Source: a virus (lineage: Duplodnaviria; Caudoviricetes). Taken from it: a stretch of 58,610 nucleotides of DNA. Positions 1 through 58,610 of this stretch are shown here, piece after piece. The notes below the pieces were generated by a model. That model saw only the letters and a program-made list of their open reading frames with translations, was not told the DNA's origin and did not search any database. Made by a program: the position numbers and the translations under genes. How positions within the stretch are numbered: position 1 is the stretch's first letter; every line of letters begins with the position of its first letter. Where the stretch lies: positions 1 through 58,610 of IMG/VR virus record IMGVR_UViG_3300049910_000050, one strand, 5' to 3'.

Positions 1-212
1 AACCGGGCAAGCTGCGGGATGGCGGCGGGCATCATCCCCCGGCTGGCCTGGTAGCCGGTGCGGTAGGGCTGAGTCAATGACTGAAAGCCATGGTTGGCGA
101 GCACCTGATCCGCCGCGTTCGGGGCGATGTTGTGCAGCAAGTCGGAGACCTGCCTGCCCGACATGTTCGCCTCGGTGGTGCCGATGCGTTCCAGCCGCTG
201 CGCCTCGCGCTG
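1..212 (+). repeat. Terminal direct repeat, left copy (assembly overlap)
   Basis: 1..212 equals 58399..58610 except position 90 (A) versus 58488 (G). Confidence 0.97.
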
Positions 213-3200
213 CAGCCGCGAGGTCGCCGCCGTGAACTTGCCCTTGTTGCGCGTCAGCGGGGCCGCATCCCGGAACATTTGTGCTACTCTGGCGTTGGGT
301 ATCCGGTTGTCCAGCACCCCGGGTACCGCCTTCAGGACCGACTGGTCCAGGCCCTGCGTCAGCCCGCGCGTGGCGCGCTGGTACGCGGCGCTGGCAGCCA
401 CCTCACCGGGCTCGCGCAGCTTGGTCAGCACCGCGCTGGCCAACCGGGCCGTGTCGCCTACGGGCGCAAACGGCAGCGCCCGCGCGCCCGCGCGTACCGC
501 GCTGGACACGCCCGAGATCGCGGGGCCGACCGCCGCGCCGATCCCAACGTTGACCGCCTGCTCCGCGACCTTGCTGGGGTCGCCGCTCTGGATCGCACTG
601 ATGATGTCCGGGGCCTGCACGGCGGCGGTCGAGAGTCCGCCGATCAGCGCCGAGCCCGCCACGCCCGAGACACCCAGCGCCTCGGCGGCACCGGGGATCA
701 GCAGGCTGCCCGCGAAGCCCAGCGTTTTCAGGTCCTCCATCTGGGCCTGGTGCATCTCCTCGGGGGTGCGCGGGTCGGTCGGGTGCTGCGCCTGGTGCTC
801 TGCAGCCGGGCCCATGAGCGGGAACTGCGACTGCTGGCCGATCTCCGTGGAGGGGTGCTGCGGCGCGGCCTGCGGCTGGGGCGTGGGCTCAGCGGGCGGC
901 GGGGGCGCGGTCAGGCCCTGGTGCACCGCCGTGCCCAGGTTGCGCGCGCCCTGCGCGATGCCGCCCACCACCGGTAGCTGTTCGGGGTTGACCGGCGGCT
1001 GGGGCGTCACCGGCTTGCCCTGCGCCTGCTGGATGGCGGGTGTGACCGCGCTCTGCGCGGTCTGGCGCAGCGTCTGCGCGGCGGGACCGGCCTGCTGGGC
1101 CACGTTCTGCACAGCCTGGTTCGCGGCCACGGCGGCGGGCTGCCCGCCGGTGAGCTTGTTGATCGCACCCTGTACGGTCTGCTGCGCAGTCTGAATCGCG
1201 CCCTCGCCGCCCTGCACGATGTTTTCCCACCACGGGGTCTCGTCGTCCTGGCCCGCACCCGCAGGCTGCGGCTGGTTCTGGTCGTCCTGGGACTTGGCGT
1301 ACCAGCCCACGACCAGCCCGCCCGCCAGGCCCGGTCCCCAGGCGGTGCCCTTGCCCAGGTAATTCACCATGTCGATGCCGTTACCCTCAGCGACCGGGGA
1401 GCCGACCTCGTTCATGTTGGACACCAGCCAGACGGTCTCGCCCACCTCGGGCCCGATTCCGCCGTTGTAGACCACCAGATAACCCCGGGCGCGCAGCTTG
1501 TCGTACAGGATATCGCCGTAGTCGCCGCCCGTCCGGGCGTACTCCTGATCGGCCTCGTCGTGGACCTGCTGCATGACGGCTTGCGCGTTGGGGTCGTCCT
1601 TCAGGTTCAGGATGCGGTCCTGGGTGACCTTGCTGGGGTCGATCTGCCACGCCTGGCCGTAGAGCCGCTCGGTGCCAGAGAAGCGGTCGGAGGCCGTGTT
1701 GGGGTCGGTGTCGGTGTAAATCCCCGCCGTGTGCACCTCGCCCACGCCCCTGTCGCTGCCCTGCGGCACGCCCTCCAGCTTCCACCTCACCCGGGTGGGA
1801 TAGGGCGAGGTTTTCTTCAGCCCATCGGTGCCCGCCTTGGCGCGCGTGCGGAAGTCCGTGACCCACGGAGCGTCGATGTCCATGCCCTTGAACTGGTGCG
1901 TGACCAGCAGCGGCATCGAGGTGCGCAGCGTCTGGTCGCCCGCTTGCGAGCGCTGGATGGCGTACTGCTGGATGTCCTGAATGCTCGCCGTGCCCAGCCG
2001 GTTGCGCACATCGTCTGCGGTGATGTTGCCCTGCACGTAGTCCCACAGCGTGCTGGCGACGTCGGAATCCGATACGCCAGGCAGCGGGGTCCAGCCCGGC
2101 GCGCCGCCGGGTACGGAGGGCGTGATACCGGTGGGCGCGGGCGCGGGTCCCAGCGGACCCGAGGGGGTTGGGGTGTAGATCAGCCCCTTGTATCCATACC
2201 TGGGCTTGGAGCTTTCGGGGGCGTAGCCCGTGACGCCCGCCATCGGGTCGGTGCCAGTCGGTGGCAGCCCGCTGGGAGGGGCTGCCGAGGTAGTGCCATA
2301 GGTGAAGTTGGAGGCCGGCGTGTTGGCGGGGTTGGGGGCCGCAGGATAGGCGTTGGAGCCCCACGTCTGGCCCATGCTGATCGCGTTCTTGTACGCGTCC
2401 TCCGCGTCACCGTCCGAGGGCGCGCCCGTGCCGTTGTCGAATTGCTTCCACTCCACGAACCCATCCGGATTCACGTACAGGTACTGGTACGCGCCTTCGG
2501 CCTGGTTCCAGTTCTTGACCACGTTGATGTCGTCGCCGTTGGCGTCCTTGAACTGGGCCACGACCGCGTCGTTCGGGTCGCCCGCGTACGCGAACAGGTC
2601 ACCCTGCGCCTGCGGCACGACCAGACTGGCCGCGTCAGGGTACTTCGAGGCAGCGGGGCTGGGAGGACTGGTGTAACCGCCCTGGCCACCAGGGTAAGTA
2701 CCGGGGTCCTCCGGATGGACGCCGGTCAGGCTGACATCCCCGCCAGCGTCGGAGAAGTCAGGCTTCGCGGCGTCCTCCGGAGGGGGTCCGATGCGCGGGT
2801 CCCACACGCCCAGGCCACCCGGACCAAGCACGGGGTACTGGCGCTTGAGCGGGTCAAGCTGGCTGGTCGCCTGGGTGAGCGGGTTGAGCGCCGCCTCGGC
2901 CCCCTGCTTGAGCCCGCTCAGCGCCCCCTGTGCGCCCTGCACAATGCCCTGGATCGGGTTGTCCTGGCCCGCGCCCGCGCCGCCCTGCGGGGCGAGCACA
3001 ACGGTGTCGGCGGGCTGGAAGCCGAGTTGCTGCAGGCGCTGCGGAGTGATCCAGTCCGAGCCGCCCTTCAGGTCCGCGCCCGTCGAGGCCCCACCGTGGT
3101 ACTGGCCGGTGTCCGGGTTGTAGCCATCGAGGAACGCGAAGTGCCCGCCGTGGCCGCTCAGGTTCAGGATGACCGGCCTGCCGGCGGCGATCTCGCTCTG

Positions 3201-4580
3201 TATCTGATTCCAGTCGACGCCCCCGGTCGCGACCGCCTGCACACCCATGCGCTTCAGAAGCTCGACCTCGCCCGACGCGCCCGCGCCCAGCATGCCCACG
3301 GCGGAGTTCCATAGCCCCTGCGCGAAGCCCAGCGCCTGGGTCGGGGACAGGTTGATGCCCTGGGACGCGGCCAGCGCGGCGGCAGCGGTGGGACCGCACG
3401 TGGAGTAGTTGACCGGCATGCCGTTGGCCTGCTCGAAGTCGGCCTCGCTCATCACCGTGGCGCTGGACACGTTGGCTCCGGGGGTGTCGGACTGCGGTGC
3501 GGGGGTCACGGCTGAGGCAGCCTGGGCGAGCGTGCTGGAGACGGTGCCGCCGATGCGGTTGACGATGCCCTGCACGATGCCCAGGTACTCGCCCTCGCCT
3601 GCGGTGAAGTAGCCTCCCGCCTTGAGGCCGTGCACGAAGCTCGCCAGGTCAGGAGCGTTTACCGCGCCGGGGTAGTGGTTCTTTATCAGGTCGATCCACG
3701 CGTTGACGCTATCCAGCGGCGTGGCATAGGCCGCGAACTTCGCCTGCGTCTGCACACCCCCACCTGGCCCCTCGTGGGTTTGCATGACCGTACCCGGCTG
3801 ACCAGGCAGCGCCTTGACCCCAAACAGTTCGTTGCCCGCCGCGTTGCCGTAGTTCGACTCGCTAGCAGCCATAGCCGCCACCCAAGCCGGATCAATACCA
3901 AGCTGCTGTGCCGCGTACTGGGCATACGGAGCAAAGCTCTGGGCAAAGGTCGTCGGGCTGGACGCATCAATCTGGCCGGATGGCTGACCCTGGTCAGAGG
4001 TCGTCGCAGCCGCCGGGGCGGCGGCGGGAGCCGGCGGCGCAGGAGCCGCCGCCGGCTTTGTAGCCGCTGATGCCGGACCGCCTTGAGGAGGAACCCGGCC
4101 AGGCATCACGGGTATCGTGCTCACGGGCGACGTCGACACACCCACAGGTCGAACGGGCGTCGTTTGCACGGGTGGCGGCGTGGATGAAGCCGCTGGCTTA
4201 GGTGTAACAGGAGCGAATGCTCTTGTCAAGTTTTGTGTCGGATCGTTCGACTGTCGAGATTGTGGCTGAGTTGGTTGACTTGCCGGAACCGGAGAAAACG
4301 GGGTGGTGGCAATCTGGGGGGTCGCAAGGGGCGAGCTAGCGGCGGGCGCTGGCCCTGGCGCTGGTCCTGGCAGGGGGAGAATGGGAACGGGCCTGAAGCT
4401 CTGCGGCCCAATGGCCTGCTGCCCGAGGGGGGTCGGCTGGCCCGCCCCGACTTCCGGAGTGTCCCAGCCCGAGGCGAGCTTGACCTTCTTGTTGGGGCGC
4501 GGAGCCCAGCCTGGCTTGGCTCGCGGCGGGTCCTTGCGCGGGATTTCGTCAGTTGAAAGCCAGCCCGGAACGGTAGTCAC
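1..4580 (-). CDS. 5' part of giant (2827 aa) polyvalent internal virion/ejection protein: GH73 glucosaminidase (~3950-3550), C39-like peptidase (~3410-3035), ART-like domain (~1800-1400)
   Basis: GTG at 4580 overlaps the upstream TGA (GTGA); frame is open to position 1 and joins ORF 54495..58562 through the repeat (8484 nt total); motifs AAMAASESNYG-NELFGVKA-FAAY-GGYFT, STCGPT-GRPVIL-GHF, GIYTDTDP-LRARGY-EVGE. Confidence 0.85.
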   Translation of the reverse strand, partial: MTTVPGWLSTDEIPRKDPPRAKPGWAPRPNKKVKLASGWDTPEVGAGQPTPLGQQAIGPQSFRPVPILPLPGPAPGPAPAASSPLATPQIATTPFSPVPASQPTQPQSRQSNDPTQNLTRAFAPVTPKPAASSTPPPVQTTPVRPVGVSTSPVSTIPVMPGRVPPQGGPASAATKPAAAPAPPAPAAAPAAATTSDQGQPSGQIDASSPTTFAQSFAPYAQYAAQQLGIDPAWVAAMAASESNYGNAAGNELFGVKALPGQPGTVMQTHEGPGGGVQTQAKFAAYATPLDSVNAWIDLIKNHYPGAVNAPDLASFVHGLKAGGYFTAGEGEYLGIVQGIVNRIGGTVSSTLAQAASAVTPAPQSDTPGANVSSATVMSEADFEQANGMPVNYSTCGPTAAAALAASQGINLSPTQALGFAQGLWNSAVGMLGAGASGEVELLKRMGVQAVATGGVDWNQIQSEIAAGRPVILNLSGHGGHFAFLDGYNPDTGQYHGGASTGADLKGGSDWITPQRLQQLGFQPADTVVLAPQGGAGAGQDNPIQGIVQGAQGALSGLKQGAEAALNPLTQATSQLDPLKRQYPVLGPGGLGVWDPRIGPPPEDAAKPDFSDAGGDVSLTGVHPEDPGTYPGGQGGYTSPPSPAASKYPDAASLVVPQAQGDLFAYAGDPNDAVVAQFKDANGDDINVVKNWNQAEGAYQYLYVNPDGFVEWKQFDNGTGAPSDGDAEDAYKNAISMGQTWGSNAYPAAPNPANTPASNFTYGTTSAAPPSGLPPTGTDPMAGVTGYAPESSKPRYGYKGLIYTPTPSGPLGPAPAPTGITPSVPGGAPGWTPLPGVSDSDVASTLWDYVQGNITADDVRNRLGTASIQDIQQYAIQRSQAGDQTLRTSMPLLVTHQFKGMDIDAPWVTDFRTRAKAGTDGLKKTSPYPTRVRWKLEGVPQGSDRGVGEVHTAGIYTDTDPNTASDRFSGTERLYGQAWQIDPSKVTQDRILNLKDDPNAQAVMQQVHDEADQEYARTGGDYGDILYDKLRARGYLVVYNGGIGPEVGETVWLVSNMNEVGSPVAEGNGIDMVNYLGKGTAWGPGLAGGLVVGWYAKSQDDQNQPQPAGAGQDDETPWWENIVQGGEGAIQTAQQTVQGAINKLTGGQPAAVAANQAVQNVAQQAGPAAQTLRQTAQSAVTPAIQQAQGKPVTPQPPVNPEQLPVVGGIAQGARNLGTAVHQGLTAPPPPAEPTPQPQAAPQHPSTEIGQQSQFPLMGPAAEHQAQHPTDPRTPEEMHQAQMEDLKTLGFAGSLLIPGAAEALGVSGVAGSALIGGLSTAAVQAPDIISAIQSGDPSKVAEQAVNVGIGAAVGPAISGVSSAVRAGARALPFAPVGDTARLASAVLTKLREPGEVAASAAYQRATRGLTQGLDQSVLKAVPGVLDNRIPNARVAQMFRDAAPLTRNKGKFTAATSRLQREAQRLERIGTTEANMSGRQVSDLLHNIAPNAADQVLANHGFQSLTQPYRTGYQASRGMMPAAIPQLAR
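4201..4229 (-). promoter_or_regulatory. Possible internal sigma70-type promoter inside the giant gene
   Basis: Minus strand TTGACA-N17-TACACC with TGn extension, in a locally AT-richer patch. Confidence 0.35.
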
Positions 4581-7500
4581 GCGGCGATGCCAGGTGCCTG
4601 CTTGACAGCGGGCGCACGCGCCGCGCTCCAGTTTTTGGTCTCCTGCCCCTGCCAGCCCGAGGGCGAGAAGCCCATCACGTTCGCGTTCATCACGTCCCCA
4701 GCGAGTGTCGCCTGATCGGCACTGGCTGCCTGCAGCGGCGTGATGTCAGCGGTCGGGCTCGCACCCTGATCGAGCGCGGAGTAGTGCAAGCGATTCTGCT
4801 CCTGATTCCACTTCGCGGGTCCGTAGGTGTTCTGGAACCATGAACCATATACCGATTTCTGCCACGGTGTCATCGCCTGCCAGTCCTGCCAGGACTGCGG
4901 CTGTTTGCCCCACGACTGGTTGGAGCCGATGGCCCCCGAGGGCATGGGTTGGCCCGACGCGGTGCCGGTGGGGTAGGCAACGTTGTCGGAACCCGCCGGC
5001 TGCATGGTACCCATGAACGTCTGACCTGGCTGGCCCTGGGCCGCTGCCTGCGAGGTCGCCGCGCCTGGACTGCCAGTCGGCGGCGGGGAGGTGGTGCCCT
5101 GCGCGCCCTGTCCACCCGGGGTGCCCTGCTGGGTGTTCCCCCAACCGATGGTTGGCAGGTTGGTGTTCGGGTCGACGCCCACCTGGGGCGTGCCCGCCAC
5201 CCCGTAGTTCGAGGGCGGCGGCGCGTACGGCGAGCCCTTGACCCAGGAGTTCGGGTCCCAGGGGCTGAAGATGTTGTTCAGGCCCCACGGGTCAGAGCCG
5301 CCGACGACGGGCTGGCCCACGGCGGTCGGCAGCGGGTTGATGCCGGACAGCATCCCCATCCACGGCGAGGACAGCGCCGACTGCAACAGTTGCAGCCGGT
5401 CCTGCTGTCTGGTCTGGAAGTCCGAGAACGCCTGCTGGCCCTGCGTCTGCAGGATGCTCTGGCCCGCCGCGTTCATCGCGTTCAGCGCCGACTGCGCCTG
5501 GCCCTGCAGCGTGACCATGGCCTGCAGCAGCGCCTGGAACTGCGCCTCGGCGTTGGACGCCCGCGTGTTGGCGTCCTCGACGTTGGTGGTGCGGTTCTGC
5601 GGGTTGCCGCTCTGGTCGGTCGCCGCCACGCTGGGCGCGCCGCCGGCGGGGCTGCCCATCTGGTGCGCGTAGCGGTTGGCGTCGTCCTGTTCCTGCGGCG
5701 TCATCTGCGCGTAGGGCTTGGAGATGGTGTACGTCTGGCCGCTCTGGGTCAGGCCCTGATGCTGCCCGGAGTCCTGCGCGGGCGCGCCGCCCTGGCCCGC
5801 ACCGGCGTGCGCGCTCCTGCCGTACGGCGGGATCGGCCAGCCCGCTTCGAGGCCCTGGTCGTTGCCCTGTCCCGCGCCCGCCTGGGCCGCTCCCCCCGTC
5901 CCGCCTGGCGGGCCCATCATCTGGGTGCCAGGTACCGGCGGCATGTTCTGCATGCCCGGGGGGAGGGCTTGCGTCGGGTCTGTTGGCACTCCCTGCTGGT
6001 CTTTCACTCCCCAGTGGAGATGCGAGCCCGTGGTGTTGCCTGTTGACCCGACGCTGCCCAGCGTCTGACCCTGAGCGACCTGCATGCCAGGGTAGGCGTC
6101 GGTATGGCTCAGGTGCCCAAGCTGATGCTCCGATCCGTCCTTGCCCTGGATGGTGACCACCAACCCCAGCCCCTGCGGGTTGTGCTCGACGCGCGTCACG
6201 AAGCCGTCGACCGGGCTCTGGGTCGGCACGCCCTCGCTGGCCTGCAGATCGACGCCCTCGTGCTGCGGGGTGCCGACGTTCATCTGCTGGCCGAAGCGGT
6301 GGCCGATGCCCTGCACATCGGGCTGCTGTACCGGCGGCTGCCAGCCGCCCGGGGGCAGGCCCGGAGGCGGCGCATCGCCTGGCGTCGGCGGCGGCGGGGT
6401 GCCACCCTGACCCGCGCCCTGCATCTGCTGCGGCGAGGGCTGCGCGGGGGCGACCATCGGCGGGCGCGGCTGGCTGTGCTCGGGGTCGCTGGCGAAGGGT
6501 ATGGGTTGAGCCAAATACGGCGACAGGATAGCCGGCACGTCTGGAGTCGTACCGGCCATCCCCGGGTTGAGCAGCGCGCCCGCCACGTTGGGGTCCATCA
6601 TGTTGGCCTGCATCTGGCTCTGGGCTGGGTCGGGCACGCCGCCCTGCCCCGCGCCGCCGCCGCCCGACATGCCGCTGCCACCGCGTCCGCCGCCCATGCC
6701 GCTGGAGCGTCCGCCGAGATGCCCCGCGCCGACCTCCCACGGCTCGTCCTGGCCGACGCCCGGCGAGCCCATCGACTGCACACCCAGGCCCGCGCCCAGG
6801 CGGAGGCGGGGTTCCCAGCCCACGCCCGAGGACCCACGCCCCGTTGCGGGGGTCAGTCCTCTGCCCGCAAAAGTCGTGCCCGTGTCGCCAAAGCCCTGAC
6901 CGGCACCCGCTCCTCCGCCACCGGTGGGTAGCTCGGGCACGGGCTGAAACGGCGCGGCGGGCGGGTAGACCTCGCCCCGCTTGTAGCGCTGCGCCTGTTC
7001 CTGCGCGGCCTGTTCCGCGCCGGTGGGCGGCGTGGGGTACGACGAGGGCCCATGCGTGATCGAGCTAGGCTGCGCCGCCTCGATCTGCGCCGTCGTTCCG
7101 TAGGGCGGCAGCGCGGGGTTCGTCGGAGGGGCGGCGGGAGCGGCGGCAGCCGGCGGGTTCTGACCAGGCGGGGGCGTACCCGCAGCGGGCAGGTTCGCGA
7201 GGTTCGCCAGCCGCGTGTCCTGCGCGGCGATGTCCCTGGCCTCCTGCGGCAGCGGTCCGCCCGAAGTGATGTTCGAGACCGTCTTGTTGGGCTGCGTCAG
7301 CGGGCTGGGGTTGTACTGGACGTCGACCGAAGCGCCCGGTGGCACGAGCAGCCCGCCGCCGGTGGACGTCACAGCGGGGTGGGTGAGCGCGTAGCCGCTC
7401 TGCGCCAGCGTGTTGGCTGCCGTTGCATCGGCAAGCTGGCTGGTAGTCTGCGAGCCAGGGATGGCCGAGATGCTACCGTCCGGGCTCACCACCATAAACC

Positions 7501-8791
7501 CGGCTGAGCCGGCGTTGACGATGCTGGTGCCGCCAACCGGCTGCGTACCGGGCAGGTCCCTGACCTCGCCGGTGGCCGTGTTGTACATGATCGAGCCGCG
7601 CGCGCCCGCCGAGACGACGTACCACGGCGCGGAGGAGGCGGCGGAGCCCTTGCCGATGAAGTACGTCGCCTTGCTGGGATTGCCCTGCGGATCGAGGACC
7701 GCGTTGCCGATAATGACCTGGGTGCCGTCGTTCAGCACCGCGACGATGTTGTCGGACAGCGGGTTGCCGTTCTGATCCGTGTCGCCAGACGGGGTGTACT
7801 GAATCGAAACGGTACCCGGGGGTAGCTCAGAGGCAGTCGGCAGGATGCCGTTGCTGGAGGCCACCAGCTTGTTGACCACACTCGGGTCGGTGCCGCCCTG
7901 GGGCTGTCCCTGACCCTGCGCACCGCCCTGGGTTTGACTGCCCTGTGCTCCCCCCTGCGCCTGGTTCTGCGCCGCCTGGTCGGCCTGCTGGTTCTGGGCA
8001 ATCTGCTGCGCCTGCGCGGGGTCGAGCGTGCCCTGCGCTTCGAGCGCGCCCACGTCGGGACCCGCCGCCGACGAGGCGATGTTGGCGTTGCCGGACGTAT
8101 CCGCGCCGACCGCAGTCGGGGTCGCCGTGGCAGTCGGCGCGGTGTCGTTGATGTTCTGCCCACCCGACATGCCCTGGCCCAGCAGCGCGGAGCGCGCGGA
8201 CGTGTCGTCGGGCGTGGGCGTGCCCCCCTGGCCCGCGCCAGGCGCGTTGCCCCAGCCGCGCGTGGTGCCCCACATCGAGGCCCGCGTGCCCTGGCCGACC
8301 GCTTGCGGACCGCTGGTCGCGATGCGCGGGTTGGGTCCGGTGCTGTACGGACCGACGCGCGCGGGGGGCGCACCAGGCGTGACCTGCCCGGAAGCCATGG
8401 AGCCCGGCACGCCGTAGCGGCCTTCGAGCCGCTCCTGGCCTGGCAGCACGGGCGAGCCGCCGCCGCTCTGCAAGATGGGCGGGGTGGGCGCGCCGCCCTG
8501 ACCGGAGCCCATGGGCGAACCGGTGATGCCCGCGCCCTGGGAGAACCCGCCGCCCGCGCCCTGCATGGTGCTGGGCACAGCGTCGTTGGGCAGCAGCGTG
8601 TAGTTCAAATGTTCGGCAGGGGCCATCGCACCCCGCTGGTGCACCTCCTGGGTGGCCGGGGTGTAGTTGATGTGCTGGATCGGGGCCTGTTCTCCCGGGG
8701 GCGAAGCAAGGATGTGGAAGCCGGGCTGCTGCCCACGGATCACCTCGCGGCGACCCGCCTGCCAGGACCCCGGGTCCCTAGCGTTCCACAC
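4577..8791 (-). CDS. Large Gly/Pro/Gln-rich internal virion protein with M23 metallopeptidase domain (~6305-5975)
   Basis: 1404-aa ORF; M23 motifs HEGVD, HL, STGNTTGSHLHW; located between portal and giant protein. Confidence 0.85.
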   Translation of the reverse strand: MWNARDPGSWQAGRREVIRGQQPGFHILASPPGEQAPIQHINYTPATQEVHQRGAMAPAEHLNYTLLPNDAVPSTMQGAGGGFSQGAGITGSPMGSGQGGAPTPPILQSGGGSPVLPGQERLEGRYGVPGSMASGQVTPGAPPARVGPYSTGPNPRIATSGPQAVGQGTRASMWGTTRGWGNAPGAGQGGTPTPDDTSARSALLGQGMSGGQNINDTAPTATATPTAVGADTSGNANIASSAAGPDVGALEAQGTLDPAQAQQIAQNQQADQAAQNQAQGGAQGSQTQGGAQGQGQPQGGTDPSVVNKLVASSNGILPTASELPPGTVSIQYTPSGDTDQNGNPLSDNIVAVLNDGTQVIIGNAVLDPQGNPSKATYFIGKGSAASSAPWYVVSAGARGSIMYNTATGEVRDLPGTQPVGGTSIVNAGSAGFMVVSPDGSISAIPGSQTTSQLADATAANTLAQSGYALTHPAVTSTGGGLLVPPGASVDVQYNPSPLTQPNKTVSNITSGGPLPQEARDIAAQDTRLANLANLPAAGTPPPGQNPPAAAAPAAPPTNPALPPYGTTAQIEAAQPSSITHGPSSYPTPPTGAEQAAQEQAQRYKRGEVYPPAAPFQPVPELPTGGGGAGAGQGFGDTGTTFAGRGLTPATGRGSSGVGWEPRLRLGAGLGVQSMGSPGVGQDEPWEVGAGHLGGRSSGMGGGRGGSGMSGGGGAGQGGVPDPAQSQMQANMMDPNVAGALLNPGMAGTTPDVPAILSPYLAQPIPFASDPEHSQPRPPMVAPAQPSPQQMQGAGQGGTPPPPTPGDAPPPGLPPGGWQPPVQQPDVQGIGHRFGQQMNVGTPQHEGVDLQASEGVPTQSPVDGFVTRVEHNPQGLGLVVTIQGKDGSEHQLGHLSHTDAYPGMQVAQGQTLGSVGSTGNTTGSHLHWGVKDQQGVPTDPTQALPPGMQNMPPVPGTQMMGPPGGTGGAAQAGAGQGNDQGLEAGWPIPPYGRSAHAGAGQGGAPAQDSGQHQGLTQSGQTYTISKPYAQMTPQEQDDANRYAHQMGSPAGGAPSVAATDQSGNPQNRTTNVEDANTRASNAEAQFQALLQAMVTLQGQAQSALNAMNAAGQSILQTQGQQAFSDFQTRQQDRLQLLQSALSSPWMGMLSGINPLPTAVGQPVVGGSDPWGLNNIFSPWDPNSWVKGSPYAPPPSNYGVAGTPQVGVDPNTNLPTIGWGNTQQGTPGGQGAQGTTSPPPTGSPGAATSQAAAQGQPGQTFMGTMQPAGSDNVAYPTGTASGQPMPSGAIGSNQSWGKQPQSWQDWQAMTPWQKSVYGSWFQNTYGPAKWNQEQNRLHYSALDQGASPTADITPLQAASADQATLAGDVMNANVMGFSPSGWQGQETKNWSAARAPAVKQAPGIAA

Positions 8792-9047: not shown

Positions 9048-9264
9048 GGTGGTTGTCCAGATACTGGCGGATGACCTCAGCGGCCTGCTGGTCCAGCGGG
9101 CTATCCCCGCTTACCACTCCGCCCAGGTAGGCTTGCTGGCGTCGGTTCAACTCCGTTCGGGACACCTTCTGGCGACCCAGCGGTGCCAGGTCCCGGTCGT
9201 CGTGGGCTATCACTTCCATCCCACGCGGGACCTCGCCCATGATCTTGCGCATGTTGGCCGGCAC
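9034..9264 (-). CDS. Hypothetical protein
   Basis: 76 aa, AGGAGG before GTG; overlaps the tail of the upstream ORF. Confidence 0.55.
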   Translation of the reverse strand: MPANMRKIMGEVPRGMEVIAHDDRDLAPLGRQKVSRTELNRRQQAYLGGVVSGDSPLDQQAAEVIRQYLDNHHARQ

Positions 9265-9772
9265 GCTCAGCTTCCTCCTGTTCGAGCATCAGCAGATCGC
9301 CGCCTGTCTTGTCGTAGACCTTCGCGCCCATTGCACGCGCCATACGCACAAGCTGCAGCAGCATGTCGTCGGTGGCCCTGATCGTCTCGATGGTGTCCCA
9401 CTCCGGGGGCGACTCGATGGCCACGATGTACGTGTCGCCGCGTCCGACGTAGACCGCCACGCGATTGTCGATCACAGCTTCTATGGCCTCCCTGGACCGG
9501 AACGATGGGCTGGCAGAGACTGGCTCATCGTGGACAGGGTTGGGCTCAGCCTCCCACGCGTGATCGTAAGACTGGGTAGCCCAGTGGTCCTCCCCGCAGC
9601 GGAAGCAGGGGGGTCGGGGAATACGCTCGTTGTACCCTGGTTGCCCGGGTACCATGGCGAGCCCGTGGAGTTCACGAGAACGATTCGATGACGGCGCGCG
9701 GATGTCCCCCGAAGGCGTCGGTGGGCCCTGCGGGCGAGTCGCGCGAAAAAGGTCAAGAGCGTCACTACTCAT
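9101..9772 (-). CDS. Hypothetical protein with CxxC-H zinc-knuckle-like motif
   Basis: 223 aa directly after portal; CFRCGEDH. Confidence 0.7.
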   Translation of the reverse strand: MSSDALDLFRATRPQGPPTPSGDIRAPSSNRSRELHGLAMVPGQPGYNERIPRPPCFRCGEDHWATQSYDHAWEAEPNPVHDEPVSASPSFRSREAIEAVIDNRVAVYVGRGDTYIVAIESPPEWDTIETIRATDDMLLQLVRMARAMGAKVYDKTGGDLLMLEQEEAERAGQHAQDHGRGPAWDGSDSPRRPGPGTAGSPEGVPNGVEPTPASLPGRSGKRG

Positions 9773-14735: not shown

Positions 14736-15257
14736 TCATCTCTCCAGCCATACGATCTGCCACGATCCTGCCCATCGACTGAACTGCTCAGGCGAAATGG
14801 TGTCGTAGATGCCCTGGTAACCCGGGGCCGAGTTGGCGATCCACAACTGTCCATCAGCCGTCATGCCGCGAATCGCGACGAAGTGGTACCACGACGTGCT
14901 ATTCAACACGCCCGTGGTTGAGCTACACAGTTCGACCGCACGATTCCAGTCGACCCATTCCTGATGCGCCTGCGGGCCGTAGGACGAGAGCACGCGCACC
15001 AGGCACTGCGTATCGGCCAGGCCGACCTGGGGGTTGACACAACTGGGATAGCCGATCTCGCCAGCGGTCTGCTCGCGCGTCGAGGTGGGGTCCAGCCAGG
15101 TGGCCAGCAGCACCCAGTCGGTGGCGCAGATCGAGCACGTCCAGTCCTGCGCCTGGGGCGGCATGGCCATGCCCCGGTTCAGGTCGAAGTCGTCCCACCA
15201 GCTATGCCAAGGGGCGGCGGCGGGCCTGCGGTAGGGAGCCAGCACAGCCGGGTTCAT
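14736..15257 (-). CDS. C39-like (papain-fold) cysteine peptidase, putative lysin
   Basis: QAQDWTCS...YHFVAIRG...WIANS; ATGA-coupled to GH25 gene. Confidence 0.75.
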   Translation of the reverse strand: MNPAVLAPYRRPAAAPWHSWWDDFDLNRGMAMPPQAQDWTCSICATDWVLLATWLDPTSTREQTAGEIGYPSCVNPQVGLADTQCLVRVLSSYGPQAHQEWVDWNRAVELCSSTTGVLNSTSWYHFVAIRGMTADGQLWIANSAPGYQGIYDTISPEQFSRWAGSWQIVWLER

Positions 15258-15883
15258 GGTCTGTACCTCGAACAGTCGCAGGCTCCCGCCACGCCAGGCA
15301 CGCTTTCCCGATCCGTGTACTGCCAGAACGTTAGCTCGGGCCAGTTGGCAGGCACCGGCGGCTGCGGGCCGTAGGCCGCGATCCACAGCTTGCCGTCGAA
15401 CGCCACGCACACCGCGTACTGGTCCAGGTTGTGGTCCGCGATGAACGGCCCGCCCGAGTACAGCATGCGGCTGCCGCCGATGTTCGCCGCGAAACGGATG
15501 GCCCAGTCCTGCAGGTCGCCCGATCCGACTTCGAGATCGAGCACCATCAGGTCGTCGGGTCCCGGCTGGACGACGGCCATGAAGTGCGCGGCCTCGGTCT
15601 CGGGGGCATTGGAATCGGGCTGGGCGAAGTGGTACGCGCCGCGCAGCAGCCCCGCGCCCCTGATCGCCTGCCAGTCCTGGGCGAAGTACGGGTTGACGTA
15701 GCTCGTGCCCTCGGTGGCCTTGACGAAGCCGAACTTGTAGCCAGCGGCAGCGACCGCCTGCCAGTCCGTGTTGGGCTGGTAGGAGGAGACGTCGGGGCCC
15801 TCGTCACCGGGCGCGAGAGCGATGCCCGGTGGCGGCGCGGGGGCGACCTTGTGCTGGGGCGGGTAGAAGATCGCGCTGGTCAC
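15254..15883 (-). CDS. GH25 muramidase (endolysin catalytic domain)
   Basis: DVSSYQ, FVKATEG, GAYHF, LDLE, LWIAAY, FWQYT. Confidence 0.93.
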   Translation of the reverse strand: MTSAIFYPPQHKVAPAPPPGIALAPGDEGPDVSSYQPNTDWQAVAAAGYKFGFVKATEGTSYVNPYFAQDWQAIRGAGLLRGAYHFAQPDSNAPETEAAHFMAVVQPGPDDLMVLDLEVGSGDLQDWAIRFAANIGGSRMLYSGGPFIADHNLDQYAVCVAFDGKLWIAAYGPQPPVPANWPELTFWQYTDRESVPGVAGACDCSRYRP

Positions 15884-19460: not shown

Positions 19461-19660
19461 CGCGACACTCCGGCCAGCGTGCCCATCGTGATCTGGGGCT
19501 GATTCGGGACGATGTCGTCGGCGTTGTTCGAGAACGGGTGGTAGGCGCGCTGGCGGGCCATGAACGCCTCGGCGGTCTCGCGCACAGGCTGGGCGGGCCA
19601 GTTCAGGTCGATGGTCAGGTCGACGCCGGTGGCTGCCGGCGCGGTGGCTGGCTGGGTCAT
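19457..19660 (-). CDS. Hypothetical protein (67 aa)
   Basis: ATGA overlaps at both ends. Confidence 0.65.
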
Positions 19661-51530: not shown

Positions 51531-51691
51531 TTGCCTGTCCTCGTACGGTTGGATGCGCGGCTGCGCATACCGCTGGTCGGAAAGGTCCGACCGGCGGCAC
51601 GCGCCTTCCCCACCGCGCGGGCAGCGGCGCGGGGGTTCATCTTGGCCAGGTCTGCCTGGGCAGCCTTGACGCGGCTTGCTCGCTTGGCCAT
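51527..51691 (-). CDS. Small Arg/Ala-rich basic protein (54 aa)
   Basis: TAATG-coupled to capsid gene. Confidence 0.7.
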   Translation of the reverse strand: MAKRASRVKAAQADLAKMNPRAAARAVGKARAAGRTFPTSGMRSRASNRTRTGK

Positions 51692-53010: not shown

Positions 53011-53894
53011 GTGTTCATCGAGTCTCGCAGTTCCTTGAGCTTCTGGACGTTGGCCTTGGGGCCAAGCGAGGAGTTGTAGGTCTGCACCGACGAGCGCACA
53101 TCGTCTCCGGTCGGGGACTTCTTGCGACCGGCGGGCTGGGCACGTGGCGCGGCGGGCGAGTTGACGCCCAGCCTCTCGCGTTCCTCCTGCCGGATGCGGT
53201 CGCGCAGTTGCTCCTGGGTCTCCGCCTTGGGTTTGCTGGGCATGTCGCCTCCGTTGCGGCTCTTGGTCGCCGCCGCTTTCATCACCGACTTGTAGAAGGC
53301 ATCCTCGGAGTTCCACGCATCATCCGGAACCTCGTCCGTGGTGACGAGCACACCGAACTCGTCCTGCGCCTCCTGCTGTATCTCGCGCACCCGGCGCGTC
53401 ATGTAGTCCGCCGGGTCCTCGGCCTGTGTCTGCTGACCAGCGCCCTGCTGCTGTGGCTGCGGCGGCTGGGGAGGCGTGGGCTGCGCCGGTTGCGCCTGCG
53501 GCGCAGCGGTCCGTATCTCACGAATCTCGTCCTGCAGCATTCCTATCTTGCGCTCAAGTCGGTCCTCGGGAGGGAGGCTCGCCAACTCTGCGTCGATCTG
53601 GGCCTGCCGGGCCTGAGCTTGCTGCCGCTGCTGCTCGTTCAGGTGCTCGGACAGTAGCCGGATGTTCGCTTCGAGGTTACCGATCTGTGCCGCCTGCGCA
53701 GACGCTACCGCCTGGGCAGCGTCCGCACGACGTCGAGCATCGGCTAGCTCGCGGCCTTGTTGACTGAGGTGCCGCTGTATTTCGCGCTCACGCTCCGCCG
53801 CTACCGTCTCCGGGCTGGGGGTCTCGGGCGAGGACGGCGCTTGGTCCTCGGGGAGTTGCTGTTCCTCCAGCGCGTTGTCTGCGGTTTCGGTCAT
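53007..53894 (-). CDS. Putative scaffolding protein
   Basis: Acidic N-terminus, coiled coil, upstream of capsid. Confidence 0.7.
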   Translation of the reverse strand: MTETADNALEEQQLPEDQAPSSPETPSPETVAAEREREIQRHLSQQGRELADARRRADAAQAVASAQAAQIGNLEANIRLLSEHLNEQQRQQAQARQAQIDAELASLPPEDRLERKIGMLQDEIREIRTAAPQAQPAQPTPPQPPQPQQQGAGQQTQAEDPADYMTRRVREIQQEAQDEFGVLVTTDEVPDDAWNSEDAFYKSVMKAAATKSRNGGDMPSKPKAETQEQLRDRIRQEERERLGVNSPAAPRAQPAGRKKSPTGDDVRSSVQTYNSSLGPKANVQKLKELRDSMNT

Positions 53895-54082: not shown

Positions 54083-54142
54083 CAAAGTCTCCTACGGGAG
54101 AAGTGCCGGACGAGTATGGGAGGCTCGTCCGGCGCTACGGAA

Positions 54143-54494: not shown

Positions 54495-57400
54495 CTAAGG
54501 TGTGTTCCCGGAAGTGTCCACACCGACCTGTGACAGGTCGGCACCCGGCGGTGCGTCGGCGTTGGTGATGTTCTGATCCAGGCCCAGTCCCGCGCCGGGG
54601 TTGTTGGTCTGGTCGGGCGTTGCCTTCCAGGCGTTGGACTTGAGCTTGTTGAACTGCTGGATGGCCGAGGCCAGCGTCAGCACACGCGAGGTCCGGTTGT
54701 AGAAGGTCACCTTGACGCTGGTGTTCATGGCCAGCGTGCGGTGCGGGTTCTTGGGGTCAGGGGTATTCAGCGCCTTGTACAGCCCGATCAGCGTGTTGCG
54801 GTTCTGCGCCTCCTGCGGGCTGGGGTTGTCGGCCCACATCGGTAGCGTGCCCGCCATGTACTGCTGCCACTGGGCGTCGGTCATCGTCCGGCCTGTACCG
54901 AACCAGCGTTCGTAGTCCCAGTAGCCAGGGCTCTTGAACGCCTGCTGGGCTGCCGCCGCCGTACCGCGCGCCTTGGCCAGTGCCTTGGCTTCGAGGTCCT
55001 TGTTGATGTACATGCCCTTGTACTTGTCGAACTTGTCGGTCGCGGCAAGCTGCGTGTCGTACTGCGCCCACTGGTCCGGACCGTTCATCGGGCTGCCGTC
55101 CGCGTTCATGTACTTGGGCGCGGTGGTGATGTTGTGCGTGTTCTCCAGCACCGTGACCGCCCGGTTGTACTGCTGGTCGATGGCGGTCTGCTCGCGGGGA
55201 GCCGTGGTGCGCAGGTACACCCGCCGCTCCAGCGCACCGGCGTCGACGCCGAACGCCTGGGCGTACTGTCCGATGACCTGCTGCTCGGCGGCGCGCGCGG
55301 TGGTGATGTCGTTGGGGCTCTTGGCGGCGGCTGCTTCGTACGCGTCTCGCACCACGTTCAGGTTGGCGCTGGACATGCCTGGCAGTGGATCGAGGTCCTC
55401 ACCGAACAGCCTGGCCTTGACGAAGTCCTCCAGCACATCGTGGTCGATGCCGTGGTTGTCAGCGGTCTGCGTCAGCCACTGTCTGCGCAGCGCGCTCTTG
55501 TCCGCATCGGTCCTGGCCTGCGCAAGCTGGCTGGCATCCCGGTTCCAGGCTTCGTTGAACAGCGCGGACTGATCCAGGCCGGAGCCAGGCGAGGAGATGT
55601 AGTCGGCCTGCTGCTGGCCCGAGGCGTTGCCACGAATGGCGTCCAGCGCCACCATGTCCGCCTTGAACTGCTTGATGACATCCGGGTGCTGGCCGTCCTG
55701 AATCTCGGGCGGGATCAGCGACTCCTCGAACTGGCCCAGCGTCTCGAACTGCAGCTTGGCCATTTGCGTCGACTTCTGAGCCGGGGTCAGGCTGGGGTCG
55801 GCTTTGATCGCCTCGCGCTGGTCCGCGATGGCAGCGTTGTGCGCCACGTACTCGGCGTGCGCCTGCTGCTGGTCGGCCAGGCTCTTGCCGGTCCACGGGG
55901 CGCTGGCGGGACCGTGCTCAATCTCGTACTCACGCTTGGTCTGCGCCTGGGCGTAGTCGGTCACGCTGCGGGTGCGCAGGCCGCTCAGCGTCTGCGCCGC
56001 CGCGACGGGACCCGGGGTGCCGCGCTCCAGGCTGGTCATACCCGCCGTGACGCCCGCCGGAGCCAGCCGCGAGGCGGCGCGCAGGATGCCGTTGCCCGCG
56101 ATCTGCCACCACTGGTCGTCGGCCTTGTTGAGCGGTCTGCCGGCGAAATCGTTGACCGACAGGAAGTCCGCCGCGAGCGACGGGAAGATACCCCCGCGCG
56201 CCTGCAGGTAACTGCCCCAGGCGGCGGCGGGGTCGGGTCGACCGGGGTCGCCTGGCCGCAGCCCGCCGGTGATGGCGGGGTTGCCCAGGCCCATCTGCTG
56301 GCCCTGCGGGGTGCCCGCGAAGGCTGCCAGGCCCCAGCGCGCGCTCTCCTTCCAGGGCTCGATCAGCCCGCGCCAGGCGGGCACGACGTCCACGTACACC
56401 CCGGCGGGCTCACCCGAGGAGGGCGAGTCGTGCTTCCAGCCCATGCGGTCGAAGAACGGCGTCAGGTCGACGGTGCCCTCCTGGCCAGGCGGGTTCTGCC
56501 AGGATGGGTGGCCCGCCAGGAGCATGTTCAGGCCCTCGACCATGACCACCGAGTTGAGCGCCGCGCTGGCCCAGAAGCCCCGGTTGAGCGAGCCCTTGGA
56601 GCCGTGGTCGAGCAGCGCCCCGCCGATCTGGCGCACGAACGAACCGGTCCAGTCGGGAGCCAGGATGGTCAGTCGCATCAGGTCGGAGATGTCCCGCGAG
56701 CGCAGCATCATGGCCAGGTTCTCGCCGCCGAAGCTCTCGTTGACCCACTGCGCGGCTGCCGCGCTCTTGCCGTTCATCTGGTAGGTCATCAGCTTCATCA
56801 TCGGGATGATGCGCGTGAACAGCGTGTCCGAGAACATGGTGGACAGCGACGTCCACTCGCCCGTCTTGAAGTAGCCAACCGGCGCGTTGATGCCGGCTGC
56901 CAGCACGCTGGCGACCGCCGCGTACTTGCGCGCGTCCTCGTCGTTCTTGCCGGTGGCCTTGGCCCCCGCGTACGCGGCGGCTCCCGCGCCGAACGTCGAG
57001 GCCCCGAAGGTGAGCCCGCGCGTGAGCGTCATCGGGCGTATCTCGGGCAGGATGTTCCACGTCATACCCTGCCGCACAGCCTGTCGGATGTCCGCCTCGT
57101 TGGCGGCGACGAACTTGTTGAAGGCCCCCGGTGTGAACGCCATGCCCATGATCTTGGCCAGCCGGGGCAGAGAGGACACGCCGTTGGAGGCCAGGAAGGT
57201 GTTGATCTCGTTCCACAGGTGGAAGCCCGAGCCGCCCAGCACGAACTCTTTGCCCTGCGTGTTCATCTCCAACGCCTTGCGCACGATGGCGCGCATGTGC
57301 GGGTTGTTCTCGAACAAACCGCTTTCCTTGAATGCCGCGTTCAGCGTGTGCGCCAGCGGGTCGGAGACGTACAGGTCGAAGTTGTGGCCAGCAGGACCCA

Positions 57401-58610
57401 GCAGGCTGCCGAAGCCCAGCGGCCCTGCTAGCTGGAAGCCGGTCATGCCCTCGGGCGGGGTGCCCGCAATGGTGGCCACGTTCTTGGGTACCTGTATCAG
57501 GTCGTGGTCTAGAATAGATGTTCCAGCCGGTAGCTTGTTCGAGTTCACGATCAGGCCGCGCAGGGCGCTGCCGAACTTCTGGTTGGCCATGGCCTGCTTC
57601 TGCGACCAGTATTGATCGGTCAGCAGCCGGGGCAGGTTCGAGAAGTCGTACTTGACCCCCTGCGCCATGCCCTCCTCGAAGTTAGCGTAGGTGCGCTCCT
57701 TGAATATCTGGCTGAGCGTGTTGAAGTGCGAGACCTGGCCCTTGATGACCTGGGGGATACCCGCGACTGCTTCCTGCATCGCCTTCGGCGTGACGCCGTG
57801 GTTCGCCGCCGCGACGGCCTTCAACCAGTCCGCCTGCGGCACGTGGTGAATCGCGAACTGGGCCGGGTAGCTGGCCTGGCCGTTGGGCAGCACGCGCAGC
57901 GTGGGCTTCTTCTTGAGCACGTCGTCCGCGACCCCCGCCTTGACCGCCTGATCCCAGGTGTCTTTGAGCAGTTGCCAGGTCTGCACGGCCTCCTTGTTGC
58001 CCTGCAGCCAGGTGGGCAGGGAGCCCGTTTTTTCCAGCGTTGTTGCTATTTCCTGATACTTGCTGGGGTCACCCCACGTGCGCTGCAGGCTATCCAGTAT
58101 GTTGGCCCGGTCGACCATGCTCAGTTCGGCCTGGTCGCTCAGCCACGCCTGGAGCTTCGACGTGGTCGAGCCCGCGTTCAGGTTGCGCATCGGGTTGCCA
58201 AAGCTGTGCCAGGCAGCCAGCGTGGCGGGCAGCACATCGCGTGATATCCAGCCGCCCAGGTACGCGTTGCCGAGCATCAGCGCCGCGCCGGTCGCCGCCC
58301 CGTTGGCCACCTTCTGGTAGTAGTTCGGGTCGTTCGGGCTGGTGTTGACGACCGCCGCCGTGGCCCCGCCCGCCGCGCCCAGCGCCGCGTTGGTGCCAAA
58401 CCGGGCAAGCTGCGGGATGGCGGCGGGCATCATCCCCCGGCTGGCCTGGTAGCCGGTGCGGTAGGGCTGAGTCAATGACTGAAAGCCGTGGTTGGCGAGC
58501 ACCTGATCCGCCGCGTTCGGGGCGATGTTGTGCAGCAAGTCGGAGACCTGCCTGCCCGACATGTTCGCCTCGGTGGTGCCGATGCGTTCCAGCCGCTGCG
58601 CCTCGCGCTG
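54495..58610 (-). CDS. 3' part of the giant 2827-aa internal virion protein
   Basis: In frame with 1..4580 through the terminal repeat; DFAGRPL motif reminiscent of large polyvalent protein domains. Confidence 0.85.
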   Translation of the reverse strand, partial: QREAQRLERIGTTEANMSGRQVSDLLHNIAPNAADQVLANHGFQSLTQPYRTGYQASRGMMPAAIPQLARFGTNAALGAAGGATAAVVNTSPNDPNYYQKVANGAATGAALMLGNAYLGGWISRDVLPATLAAWHSFGNPMRNLNAGSTTSKLQAWLSDQAELSMVDRANILDSLQRTWGDPSKYQEIATTLEKTGSLPTWLQGNKEAVQTWQLLKDTWDQAVKAGVADDVLKKKPTLRVLPNGQASYPAQFAIHHVPQADWLKAVAAANHGVTPKAMQEAVAGIPQVIKGQVSHFNTLSQIFKERTYANFEEGMAQGVKYDFSNLPRLLTDQYWSQKQAMANQKFGSALRGLIVNSNKLPAGTSILDHDLIQVPKNVATIAGTPPEGMTGFQLAGPLGFGSLLGPAGHNFDLYVSDPLAHTLNAAFKESGLFENNPHMRAIVRKALEMNTQGKEFVLGGSGFHLWNEINTFLASNGVSSLPRLAKIMGMAFTPGAFNKFVAANEADIRQAVRQGMTWNILPEIRPMTLTRGLTFGASTFGAGAAAYAGAKATGKNDEDARKYAAVASVLAAGINAPVGYFKTGEWTSLSTMFSDTLFTRIIPMMKLMTYQMNGKSAAAAQWVNESFGGENLAMMLRSRDISDLMRLTILAPDWTGSFVRQIGGALLDHGSKGSLNRGFWASAALNSVVMVEGLNMLLAGHPSWQNPPGQEGTVDLTPFFDRMGWKHDSPSSGEPAGVYVDVVPAWRGLIEPWKESARWGLAAFAGTPQGQQMGLGNPAITGGLRPGDPGRPDPAAAWGSYLQARGGIFPSLAADFLSVNDFAGRPLNKADDQWWQIAGNGILRAASRLAPAGVTAGMTSLERGTPGPVAAAQTLSGLRTRSVTDYAQAQTKREYEIEHGPASAPWTGKSLADQQQAHAEYVAHNAAIADQREAIKADPSLTPAQKSTQMAKLQFETLGQFEESLIPPEIQDGQHPDVIKQFKADMVALDAIRGNASGQQQADYISSPGSGLDQSALFNEAWNRDASQLAQARTDADKSALRRQWLTQTADNHGIDHDVLEDFVKARLFGEDLDPLPGMSSANLNVVRDAYEAAAAKSPNDITTARAAEQQVIGQYAQAFGVDAGALERRVYLRTTAPREQTAIDQQYNRAVTVLENTHNITTAPKYMNADGSPMNGPDQWAQYDTQLAATDKFDKYKGMYINKDLEAKALAKARGTAAAAQQAFKSPGYWDYERWFGTGRTMTDAQWQQYMAGTLPMWADNPSPQEAQNRNTLIGLYKALNTPDPKNPHRTLAMNTSVKVTFYNRTSRVLTLASAIQQFNKLKSNAWKATPDQTNNPGAGLGLDQNITNADAPPGADLSQVGVDTSGNTP
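58399..58610 (+). repeat. Terminal direct repeat, right copy (assembly overlap)
   Basis: Matches 1..212 with one mismatch. Confidence 0.97.

Follow-up and report, generated by a model that had tools for sequence, protein, structure and literature searches.

Why should one short glycine-rich motif recur at the borders of enzyme domains in two giant proteins of the same phage? The question is raised by IMG/VR virus record IMGVR_UViG_3300049910_000050 (Duplodnaviria; Caudoviricetes), a window of 58,610 bases in which two adjoining minus-strand genes encode protein A (1404 amino acids [aa]) and protein B (2827 aa). A first-pass annotation had noticed repeated GAGQ motifs in both, and proposed that A and B are polyproteins cut at these motifs by cysteine peptidases of the C39 type. 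Comparison with relatives indicates that the motif, here called the tag, is a conserved and non-random signal of the clade, placed at junctions between modules and at the ends of N-terminal leaders. The proposal of a junction signal shared by both giants is thus upheld by comparison, and the proposed C39 enzyme is not. That the tags are proteolytic processing sites is put here at about even odds (roughly 0.5), with the M23 peptidase domain of A as leading candidate enzyme.

The two giants and their tags

Protein A (4577..8791, minus strand, as are all features of A and B below) was delimited by its open reading frame (ORF), Pfam matches, and 24 full homologues; it has one M23 domain and not a single cysteine. 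Protein B is one ORF running from 4580 through the record junction (1/58610) to 54495. Its start codon GTG overlaps the stop of A, its N-terminal 1526 codons occupy 3..4580, and its C-terminal part (54495..58610, of which 58399-58610 repeats 1-212) holds no motif and no family match. Judged by the position of their genes, from which packaging is read, A and B are probably giant head-internal proteins of the ejection type.

Eight tags lie in A: GSGQG at aa 95 (8495..8509), GVGQD at aa 678 (6746..6760), and six copies of GAGQG, at aa 185 (8225..8239), aa 629 (6893..6907), aa 713 (6641..6655), aa 792 (6404..6418, about 50 aa before the M23 domain), aa 972 (5864..5878, just after it), and aa 997 (5789..5803, before a conserved C-terminal module). 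Three lie in B: GAGQP at aa 45, where the leader ends (4434..4448, with GAGQ at 4437-4448), GAGQD at aa 536 (2961..2975, 45 aa past the Peptidase_C39_2 domain), and GAGQD at aa 1108 (1245..1259), ahead of a motif-free C-terminal body of 1717 aa. One further GAGQ sits in a P/Q-rich linker of the scaffold-like protein (53433..53444, minus strand). Every position given in the first-pass annotation is correct, and it had also noted the GSGQG and GVGQD variants, the scaffold copy, and the difference in codons between copies.

Could the motif have no function, and be a by-product of low-complexity linkers rich in G, A, and Q, or of short DNA repeats? The linkers are indeed rich in G, A, P, and Q, four of the eight sites in A are poorly kept in position among homologues, and the scaffold copy looks like chance. 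Against this stand counts that local composition (0/2000) and dipeptide content (0/500) fail to reproduce. GAGQG is seen six times in A against 0.065-0.164 expected; six copies were reached in none of 2000 global shuffles, none of 2000 block shuffles at each of four block sizes (50, 30, 20, and 12 residues), and none of 500 dipeptide-preserving shuffles, so that the count which the first-pass annotation had suggested setting against shuffled sequence was never matched by chance. Any 5-mer at all with six copies in A appeared in 0-16 of 2000 shuffles. For B, three GAGQ are seen where 0.23-0.32 are expected, a number reached in 0-11 of 2000. Protein A holds 7.8 copies of G.G[QA][DEG] per 1000 aa; for residues 1-1200 of B the figure is 2.5, for residues 1201-2827 it is 0, and for the other 41 ORFs 0.15.

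The DNA itself offers no simpler explanation. Codons differ between copies, and the only DNA repeats around the motif are families of 15-33 nucleotides at 73-90% identity, short and imperfect, which merely mirror the peptide; they were rejected as the cause. Internal translation starts at the Met of the tag were also considered and rejected, a Shine-Dalgarno-like sequence lying 5-16 nucleotides upstream of 1/29 tag-Met ATGs and of 94/860 other internal ATGs of these ORFs. With the tag retained, far above random positions, across 24 homologues at 30-64% identity, absence of function has a probability close to nil.

The motif in relatives

Relatives were reached by several routes. Searches with the capsid protein gave 23 related viral contigs at 80-98% identity, of which G001 and G002 are complete or near-complete and encode homologues of both giants. 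The A family as found by protein search numbers 26, the window's own member included, and a scan based on an alignment added 10 loci with both A and B. The records G005-G009 were found by M23 patterns. Viral contigs searched with protein A alone gave no match, and it was the capsid protein and the alignment that led to the relatives.

At the level of the family, the motif reads as a hydrophobic residue (M/L/F/V/W) followed by G-x-G-(Q/A)-(D/E/G), as in MGGGQD, GTGQE, GAGAD, and GMGAG. GAGQG itself is rare among relatives; in this phage the motif has drifted to GAGQG in A and to GAGQ(D/P) in B. In the 26 A-family proteins, compared with shuffles in blocks of 30, G.GQ[DEG] occurs 115 times against 21.9 expected, [ML]G.GQ 70 times against 7.1, and GMGAG 27 times against 0.8; MGGGQ (28 occurrences) is no less common than GHRFG (25), the catalytic word that all members keep unchanged. 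When 198 distinct contexts are compared, Met precedes the first G in 33% of them, 11.5 times its background frequency, and F, L, and W are enriched there too; position +4 is D, E, or G, with Gly in 42% of family copies and in seven of the eight sites of A in the window.

Position is conserved as well as composition. In an alignment of 25 sequences, a G.G[QA] within 8 residues of a given site is expected in 3.2 of 24 homologues at random positions (mean; 95th percentile 12). The sites at aa 95, 185, 792, and 972 of A are kept in 21, 18, 19, and 13 of the 24, above that 95th percentile, and these positions persist while the surrounding linkers diverge. Conservation in place is thus seen at four of the eight sites in A, and likewise at the leader of B and the borders of the enzyme cassette described below; it is poor at the other four sites in A, and the scaffold copy is not conserved.

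Leaders, cassettes, and gene splits

One placement of the tag is at the ends of leaders. In an alignment of eight phages, the leader of B (aa 1-44 in the window, 4449..4580, ..GWAPRP..K.KL..GW..PEV) comprises the first 45-55 residues, with the general pattern ..GW.P[RK]..K.KL..GW..P.. and the invariant residues R20, G24, W25, P27, W39, G45, and G47. It closes with the tag G-x-G in all eight, and similarity stops directly after. Protein A likewise begins with a conserved N-terminal domain (aa 1-94, 8510..8791; family consensus PHILASPPG..INYTP..LNYSL) that the first motif closes.

Enzyme domains are bracketed in turn, as the first-pass annotation had it. The Peptidase M23 domain of A (aa 843-939, 5975..6265, Pfam E 6.1e-20) lies between the copies at aa 792 and 972. 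In B, a GH73 glucosaminidase domain (aa 217-326, 3603..3932, Pfam E 2.4e-12) and a Peptidase_C39_2 domain (PF13529; aa 388-491, 3108..3419, Pfam E 2.2e-9) lie between those at aa 45 and 536. A two-enzyme cassette occupies the interval between leader tag and second tag in 7/7 B proteins with Pfam-annotated enzymes, the second tag following 43-110 residues past the second enzyme. What fills it varies: GH73 with C39_2 (window, L041), GH73 with NlpC/P60 (G001, G002, L042, L045), or M23 with GH73 (L047). Lineage-specific insertions of at least 40 residues show a similar preference, 9/22 of their boundaries falling within 15 aa of a tag against 13% at random, in a small sample of related sequences.

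Two independent gene splits coincide with motif sites. In G001, A is encoded by two genes whose stop and start overlap, and the second product, A2, opens MSMSADTLWDLY; the same module in unsplit homologues sits 4-13 residues past a tag (..MGGGQD-NADS-RWDLY). In G005 (locus L047), A1 ends 9 aa past MGGGQE, the tag that follows M23, and A2 opens with a short leader and tag of its own, RMGAGEG (..AGWAPRKRQRMGAGEG), resembling the leader of B. A near-identical pair of contigs (L046 5377-10080, L047 9812-14374) differs by a frameshift just after the M23 tail: L046 runs out of frame into arginine-rich sequence, L047 reaches the tag and stops. Either an error of sequencing or true variation may account for the difference.

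The C-terminal module of A also occurs on its own. Searched against 1.84 billion representative proteins, it gave 31 matches at E<=0.001, 10 of which were fetched. Four of these 10 start with Met and have the tag within the first 20 residues (P0053 at 4-9, P0047 at 9-14, P0049 at 12-17, and P0050 seven past Met). The tag comes slightly later in P0052 and P0045; P0054 opens directly at the module; P0046 and P0048 are fragment-like, starting inside or just after M23; and in P0051 the N-terminus is long and of another kind. Where the tag stands at residue 4-9 of a free-standing protein it is more than an interdomain spacer, and something must recognise it. In 10 unrelated phages (L051-L060), small stand-alone M23 proteins held no tags, which carries no weight either way.

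The stretches after the two GAGQD sites of B (1197-1221 and 2922-2946) open alike, with a helix-like ..IVQG[AG][QE]GA.., and close relatives show ..QQAWQAVQGA after the tag too. The two modules downstream of these sites may be paralogous.

Candidate enzymes

If the tags are cut, which enzyme would cut them? Peptidase domains in A and B number two only, M23 and C39_2, and the giants share one cysteine in all. HExxH is absent from A, B, and their homologues in G001 and G002. The statement that the phage has no recognisable prohead protease holds: the 45 ORFs outside A and B were searched against PHROGs, and 26 of them also against Pfam, and neither search gave one. NCBIfam gave nothing for six segments, and the last 600 aa of B, compared as a profile with PDB sequences, gave only noise (E>=0.74); the last 1371 residues of B have no Pfam match.

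The M23 domain is intact. It scores 71.7 bits against PF01551 (curated cut-off 28.7) and carries HEGVD at aa 844-848 and HLH at aa 924-926. The corresponding residues (H828, D832, H908, and H910 of P0003) are invariant across 25 sequences. Catalytic motifs of M23 enzymes are defined as H(x)nD and HxH, and the sections of the same source cited here list lysostaphin-type members as cutting Gly-Gly and LasA as cutting Gly-Gly/Tyr/Leu/Phe (PMC9662197, with Table 1 for the cleavage preferences). In the AlphaFold model the core has a predicted local distance difference test score (pLDDT) of 80-96, and the flanking tags lie in segments with pLDDT under 50. The top Foldseek matches of the model are all M23 enzymes (ShyA, StM23, EnpA, LytM, and lysostaphin, probability 1.00).

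M23 is present in all eight relatives' records examined (G001, G002, G005-G009, and L041), and is the only peptidase family common to all of them. Because M23 enzymes prefer glycine-rich bonds and because the family is common to these relatives, the M23 domain of A would be the leading candidate: given cleavage, about half of the odds fall to it, most of the rest to an unrecognised protease of phage or host, and little to the C39-like domain. A prediction of the complex of M23 (with Zn) and the leader of B scored 0.00 against a mark of 0.32, which counts neither way.

Immediately C-terminal to M23 lies a tail, PPVPGTQMMGPPGG (aa 951-964, 5900..5941; columns P935-G948 of the family alignment). 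Ten of its 14 residues are invariant in all 25 family members, so that much of the enzyme is less well kept. The tail resembles a tag (M-G-P-P-G-G), and most of it has low confidence in the model. It could be a substrate in cis, or a segment that occludes the active site.

The first-pass annotation had instead favoured C39, with the tags serving as double-glycine sites for a C39-like cysteine peptidase of B. Pfam supports the domain with 38.5 bits (cut-off 24), and it keeps its cysteine, C395 in NYSTCGP, the sole one in the 2827 aa of B. Double-glycine leaders are cleaved by a rule of G at -1, G, A, or S at -2, and a hydrophobic residue at -4, and the tags resemble them in part. If the cut falls after the second G, position -1 is by definition G in 100% of copies, -2 is A in 27%, G in 23%, S in 4%, M in 19%, T in 11%, and V in 5%, a small residue in about half of the copies, and -4 is M in 33%, L in 8%, and F in 6%.

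Other findings argue against this enzyme. Pfam finds one such domain where two C39-like domains had been reported; A has no cysteine and B has one. The domain matches PF13529, with no PF03412 at E<=0.01, and no transporter was found among the 45 ORFs scanned, so that the marks of bacteriocin-processing C39 peptidases are lacking; compared with PDB sequences, the C39_2 segment gave only spurious summed matches to designed TIM barrels. The same position is taken by NlpC/P60 in G001, G002, G006, and G008 and by M23 in G005, which fits a set of interchangeable wall hydrolases. In G005, A1, A2, and B are cysteine-free, and the 46-kb record (72% complete) has no PF13529 or PF00877 match and two M23 domains; it still keeps 13 tags. 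Distant B-like proteins with C39_2, conversely, have few. Cleavage of the tags by C39 is accordingly rated very unlikely.

Avoidance of cysteine is itself a trait of these proteins: none in the 1404 aa of A, one in the 2827 aa of B (the catalytic one), and similarly in relatives. The exceptions in relatives are mini-domains of the form C-x2-C-x7/8-C-x12-C with a tag directly after (L041 aa 594-627, L042 aa 581-605, L045 aa 1175-1210).

A further domain named in the first-pass annotation, an ADP-ribosyltransferase (ART)-like domain between the two GAGQD sites of B (aa 839-1098, 1287..2066), could not be confirmed as such. The segment had no match in Pfam (E<=5), PDB sequences, NCBIfam, or a homologue search among proteins of 456-2000 aa; PF18760 (ART-PolyVal) is absent from the phage's own genome at E<=10; and a single-sequence AlphaFold model has a mean pLDDT of 44. 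A language-model comparison (Atlas) gave a weak lead only, with a score of 0.79 and the family on 17% of one cluster.

Cut or uncut

Under the processing reading, the repeated unit would be a leader or preceding module, then a tag, then a cargo module, and the motif would serve as the maturation signal of both giants. A cut at or beside G-x-G would remove the N-terminal leaders, which may be targeting peptides as in T4. Protein A would fall into an N-domain of 97 aa, a module of 444 aa, the M23 enzyme (180 aa), a C-terminal module of 405 aa, and some short linker peptides, and protein B into its leader (47 aa), a wall-hydrolase cassette of 491 aa (GH73 with C39_2), a module of 572 aa, and the body of 1717 aa. 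For the cutting enzyme, the M23 metallopeptidase of A itself is the leading candidate. From sequence we infer that the tags are cut, and likewise where inside the tag, when, and by which enzyme.

The chief alternative is that the tag is never cut. It may be a handle with which each module or leader docks in the prohead, whether on the portal, the scaffold, the capsid wall, or the module beside it; or it may be a defined flexible joint that lets modules unfold and thread singly through portal and tail. Conservation at joints, a tag at the start of stand-alone proteins, and disorder around it are all compatible with this, as is the lack of a recognisable prohead protease in this phage. Cargo proteins of crAss001 are described as packaged and extruded partly unfolded, in a paper whose text contains no words that begin with "cleav" or "proteoly"; gp28 of cyanophage A4 combines a lytic transglycosylase (LT) and M23 in one ejection protein, with no processing described in the sections of its paper drawn on here; and, among the literature matches listed, GAGQG is known from spider dragline silk, as a unit of its flexible glycine-rich part.

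Some features of the tag are harder to accommodate in this way. A hinge needs no hydrophobic residue at -1, no Q or A at +3, and no acid at +4, and at residue 4-9 of a stand-alone protein it joins nothing. The module that elsewhere follows the tag starts in G001 as a free N-terminus, which suggests that a free end is its working state. Recurrent short motifs at leader ends of phage internal proteins have, in the systems covered by the cited accounts, proved to be cleavage sites (PMC9026906, PMC10052503). An uncut tag is therefore a serious contender, rated somewhat below processing.

Several findings weigh against processing, or against M23 as its agent. The comparative facts all fit an uncut docking or hinge tag too. 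The sites at aa 629, 678, 713, and 997 of A are kept in just 6, 9, 6, and 8 of 24 homologues, and cuts at the five tag-like copies crowded into aa 629-717 of A, a stretch of no more than 90 aa, would give tiny peptides of unclear use. Eleven B-like proteins fetched by sequence, mostly of a distant lineage, show a weak excess of the motif (12 against 3.9 expected), with none individually significant. The scaffold GAGQ is present in 3 of 19 aligned scaffolds; since it is not conserved among them, this copy probably lies outside the system. About 35% of copies have M, T, or V at -2, residues that known double-glycine sites seldom show. As for the enzyme, the ubiquity of M23 is partly circular, five of the eight records (G005-G009) having been found by M23 patterns, and M23 would be needed for wall attack regardless. 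In the Foldseek comparison, D-Ala-X endopeptidases (ShyA, EnpA) are as near as Gly-Gly enzymes, at similar scores, so that the specificity of the domain may be of either kind.

The fullest form of the processing reading would be a maturation system with no dedicated prohead protease, in which a portable leader and a hydrophobic-G-x-G-(Q/A) tag send modules into the head and the same tag is cut by an M23 wall peptidase inside the cargo. The two giant genes would then constitute a self-dismantling kit of wall hydrolases, effectors, and channel parts. All of this together is improbable, considerably more so than cleavage of the tags by itself.

The phage and its gene order

The first 212 bases of the record are an exact direct repeat of its end (1-212 = 58399-58610). 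The 58,610-base window is therefore a whole virus record that closes on itself as a circle of 58,398 bp, though it is classed as "linear". The gene for B crosses the record junction, so that gene callers split or truncate it (the database entry P0031 has 2591 aa).

On the minus strand the order is large terminase (11856-13841), a portal-sized protein of 651 aa (9782-11737), two small conserved ORFs, A, B, two small ORFs, a coiled-coil scaffold-like protein (53007-53894), the major capsid protein (51691-52923), and tail genes. The capsid protein is without a propeptide, its PHROG match covering aa 4-409. Family scans found no tape measure among the 45 ORFs outside A and B. Two of the small ORFs are conserved. 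A 63-aa ORF between B and the scaffold gene (53894-54085) is 71-98% identical over 24 related loci, far above its neighbours, and a 223-aa ORF beside the portal gene (9101-9772) has a C-x2-C..H stretch and is kept in all relatives covering the locus (39-61% identity); the latter, considered as a possible hidden protease, had no lead in the ESM Atlas (best score 0.78).

The clade consists of high-GC uncultured phages. No cultured relative was found, the best capsid identity being 27-29%, to uncultured records and to the Streptomyces phages Dennebes and Stella; a host search gave two short contigs of metagenome-assembled genomes only, with discordant labels. The phage encodes a GH25 endolysin (15254-15883) and a collagen-repeat tail fibre protein (19657-20985, Pfam Collagen, E 9.6e-34). 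GH25 and collagen fibre, together with the M23, GH73, and papain-like wall enzymes of the ejection proteins, suggest a thick-walled host.

Implications

Apart from T4, T7, P22, and the giant phages, little is understood of how a phage that lacks a tape measure loads large enzymes and effectors into its head and releases them through a narrow tail. If the tags are cut, a compact sequence rule would allow the mature parts of giant ejection proteins to be predicted in metagenomic phages, and a wall-lysing M23 enzyme might have a second job as a maturation protease. A short portable leader with its tag might then also serve to load foreign proteins into capsids, like the T4 targeting sequence. If they are uncut, the tags would be a new kind of docking or joint signal. 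Cut or uncut, the rule of a cassette between two tags explains the swapping of wall hydrolases among relatives.

Comparison with known systems

The nearest parallels are phages that mature packaged proteins at short recurrent motifs. The cited accounts describe N-terminal targeting peptides of T4 internal proteins and of the injected ADP-ribosyltransferase Alt being removed by gp21 after L/I-X-E (PMC9026906), and ejection proteins of phiKZ-like phages and SPN3US being cut after A-X-E, often at several sites (PMC10052503). As in T4 (gp21; IPI-III, Alt), phiKZ gp175, and SPN3US gp245 as described there, a short recurrent motif here closes N-terminal leaders, in 8/8 cases for the leader of B and in 21/24 for the N-domain of A, and long proteins that are probably packaged carry several copies; in those phages the copies are cut, and Alt is an injected enzyme with propeptides. 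The differences are equally plain. Their motif ends in Glu and is served by a gp21-type serine protease, whereas here there is a G-x-G core with Gly at +4 in 42% and no such protease is recognisable; in addition, the capsid protein here lacks a propeptide and the scaffold is not consistently tagged.

Cuts beside wall hydrolases offer a second parallel. For Tal, the M23 tail lysin of TP901-1 and Tuc2009, the cited sections report processing at NGGGNSGGGD, a glycine-rich motif that immediately precedes the catalytic domain (PMC11409707, PMC6115969). Here too a glycine-rich motif lies upstream of M23 in a candidate virion protein (the aa 792 tag, 50 aa before the Pfam start, 19/24); Tal, as portrayed there, is a tail-tip protein with one site and a gp27-like N-terminus, in contrast to the 8+3 sites, two head-module giants, leaders, and defined tag flank of the present case. 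No gp27-like Pfam or PHROG match supports homology of A to Tal, and A lies in the head module between portal and scaffold. Processing of Tal is reportedly self-mediated, a finding ascribed to Kenny et al. in 2004. T5 pb2 is described as cut where the body of the protein meets its metallopeptidase domain, and T4 gp5 as cut beside its lysozyme domain (PMC10038345). The border between carrier and wall hydrolase that is cut there is tagged here, although in that description T5 pb2 is cut after an Arg, with no glycine motif.

Polyvalent proteins (Iyer et al. 2017) are multidomain effector strings delivered with DNA, for which the portions of the paper cited predict processing by embedded peptidases (PMC5512222). 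The predicted enzymes are zincin-like or assemblin-like, "M23" is absent from that paper's text, and the same portions describe no junction motif (PMC5512222); here, A and B hold no HExxH. Measured against the description of polyvalent proteins, B combines GH73, C39_2, and modules with no family match, ART-PolyVal was not found in it, and LPD38 occurs only in the relative P0038. There, in a B-like protein whose lineage is more distant, Pfam places LPD38 ("large polyvalent protein associated domain 38") at aa 1585-1765, which links the B family to polyvalent proteins.

Viruses of eukaryotes supply an analogy only. Adenovirus, African swine fever virus (Gly-Gly-|-Xaa), and vaccinia virus (Ala-Gly-|-Xaa) are described as cutting virion precursors after Gly (PMC1198262), and MGGG-Q and GAG-Q would fit such rules. 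Their enzymes, in that account, are clan CE cysteine proteases, whereas a relative here with cysteine-free giants keeps its tags.

Internal head proteins with a wall-hydrolase domain, ejected to open the wall, are known from cyanopodophage A4 gp28 (LT with M23; PMC12002296) and T7 gp16, and A and B appear to be of this kind; chain 9k2v_A of the A4 pre-ejectosome is among the Foldseek matches of the M23 model (rank 10, E 7.4e-9). For gp28 the cited sections describe no junction tags or processing, and gene order and size differ, the giants here lying between portal and scaffold (PMC12002296). Among the literature matches listed for five forms of the motif were spider silk, peptides, and abbreviations, and none on phages. 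Set beside all of the systems compared, with which it has its logic in common, this phage, in which no dedicated protease was found, differs in having a tag of its own and a wall peptidase, putatively glycine-directed, inside the would-be substrate.

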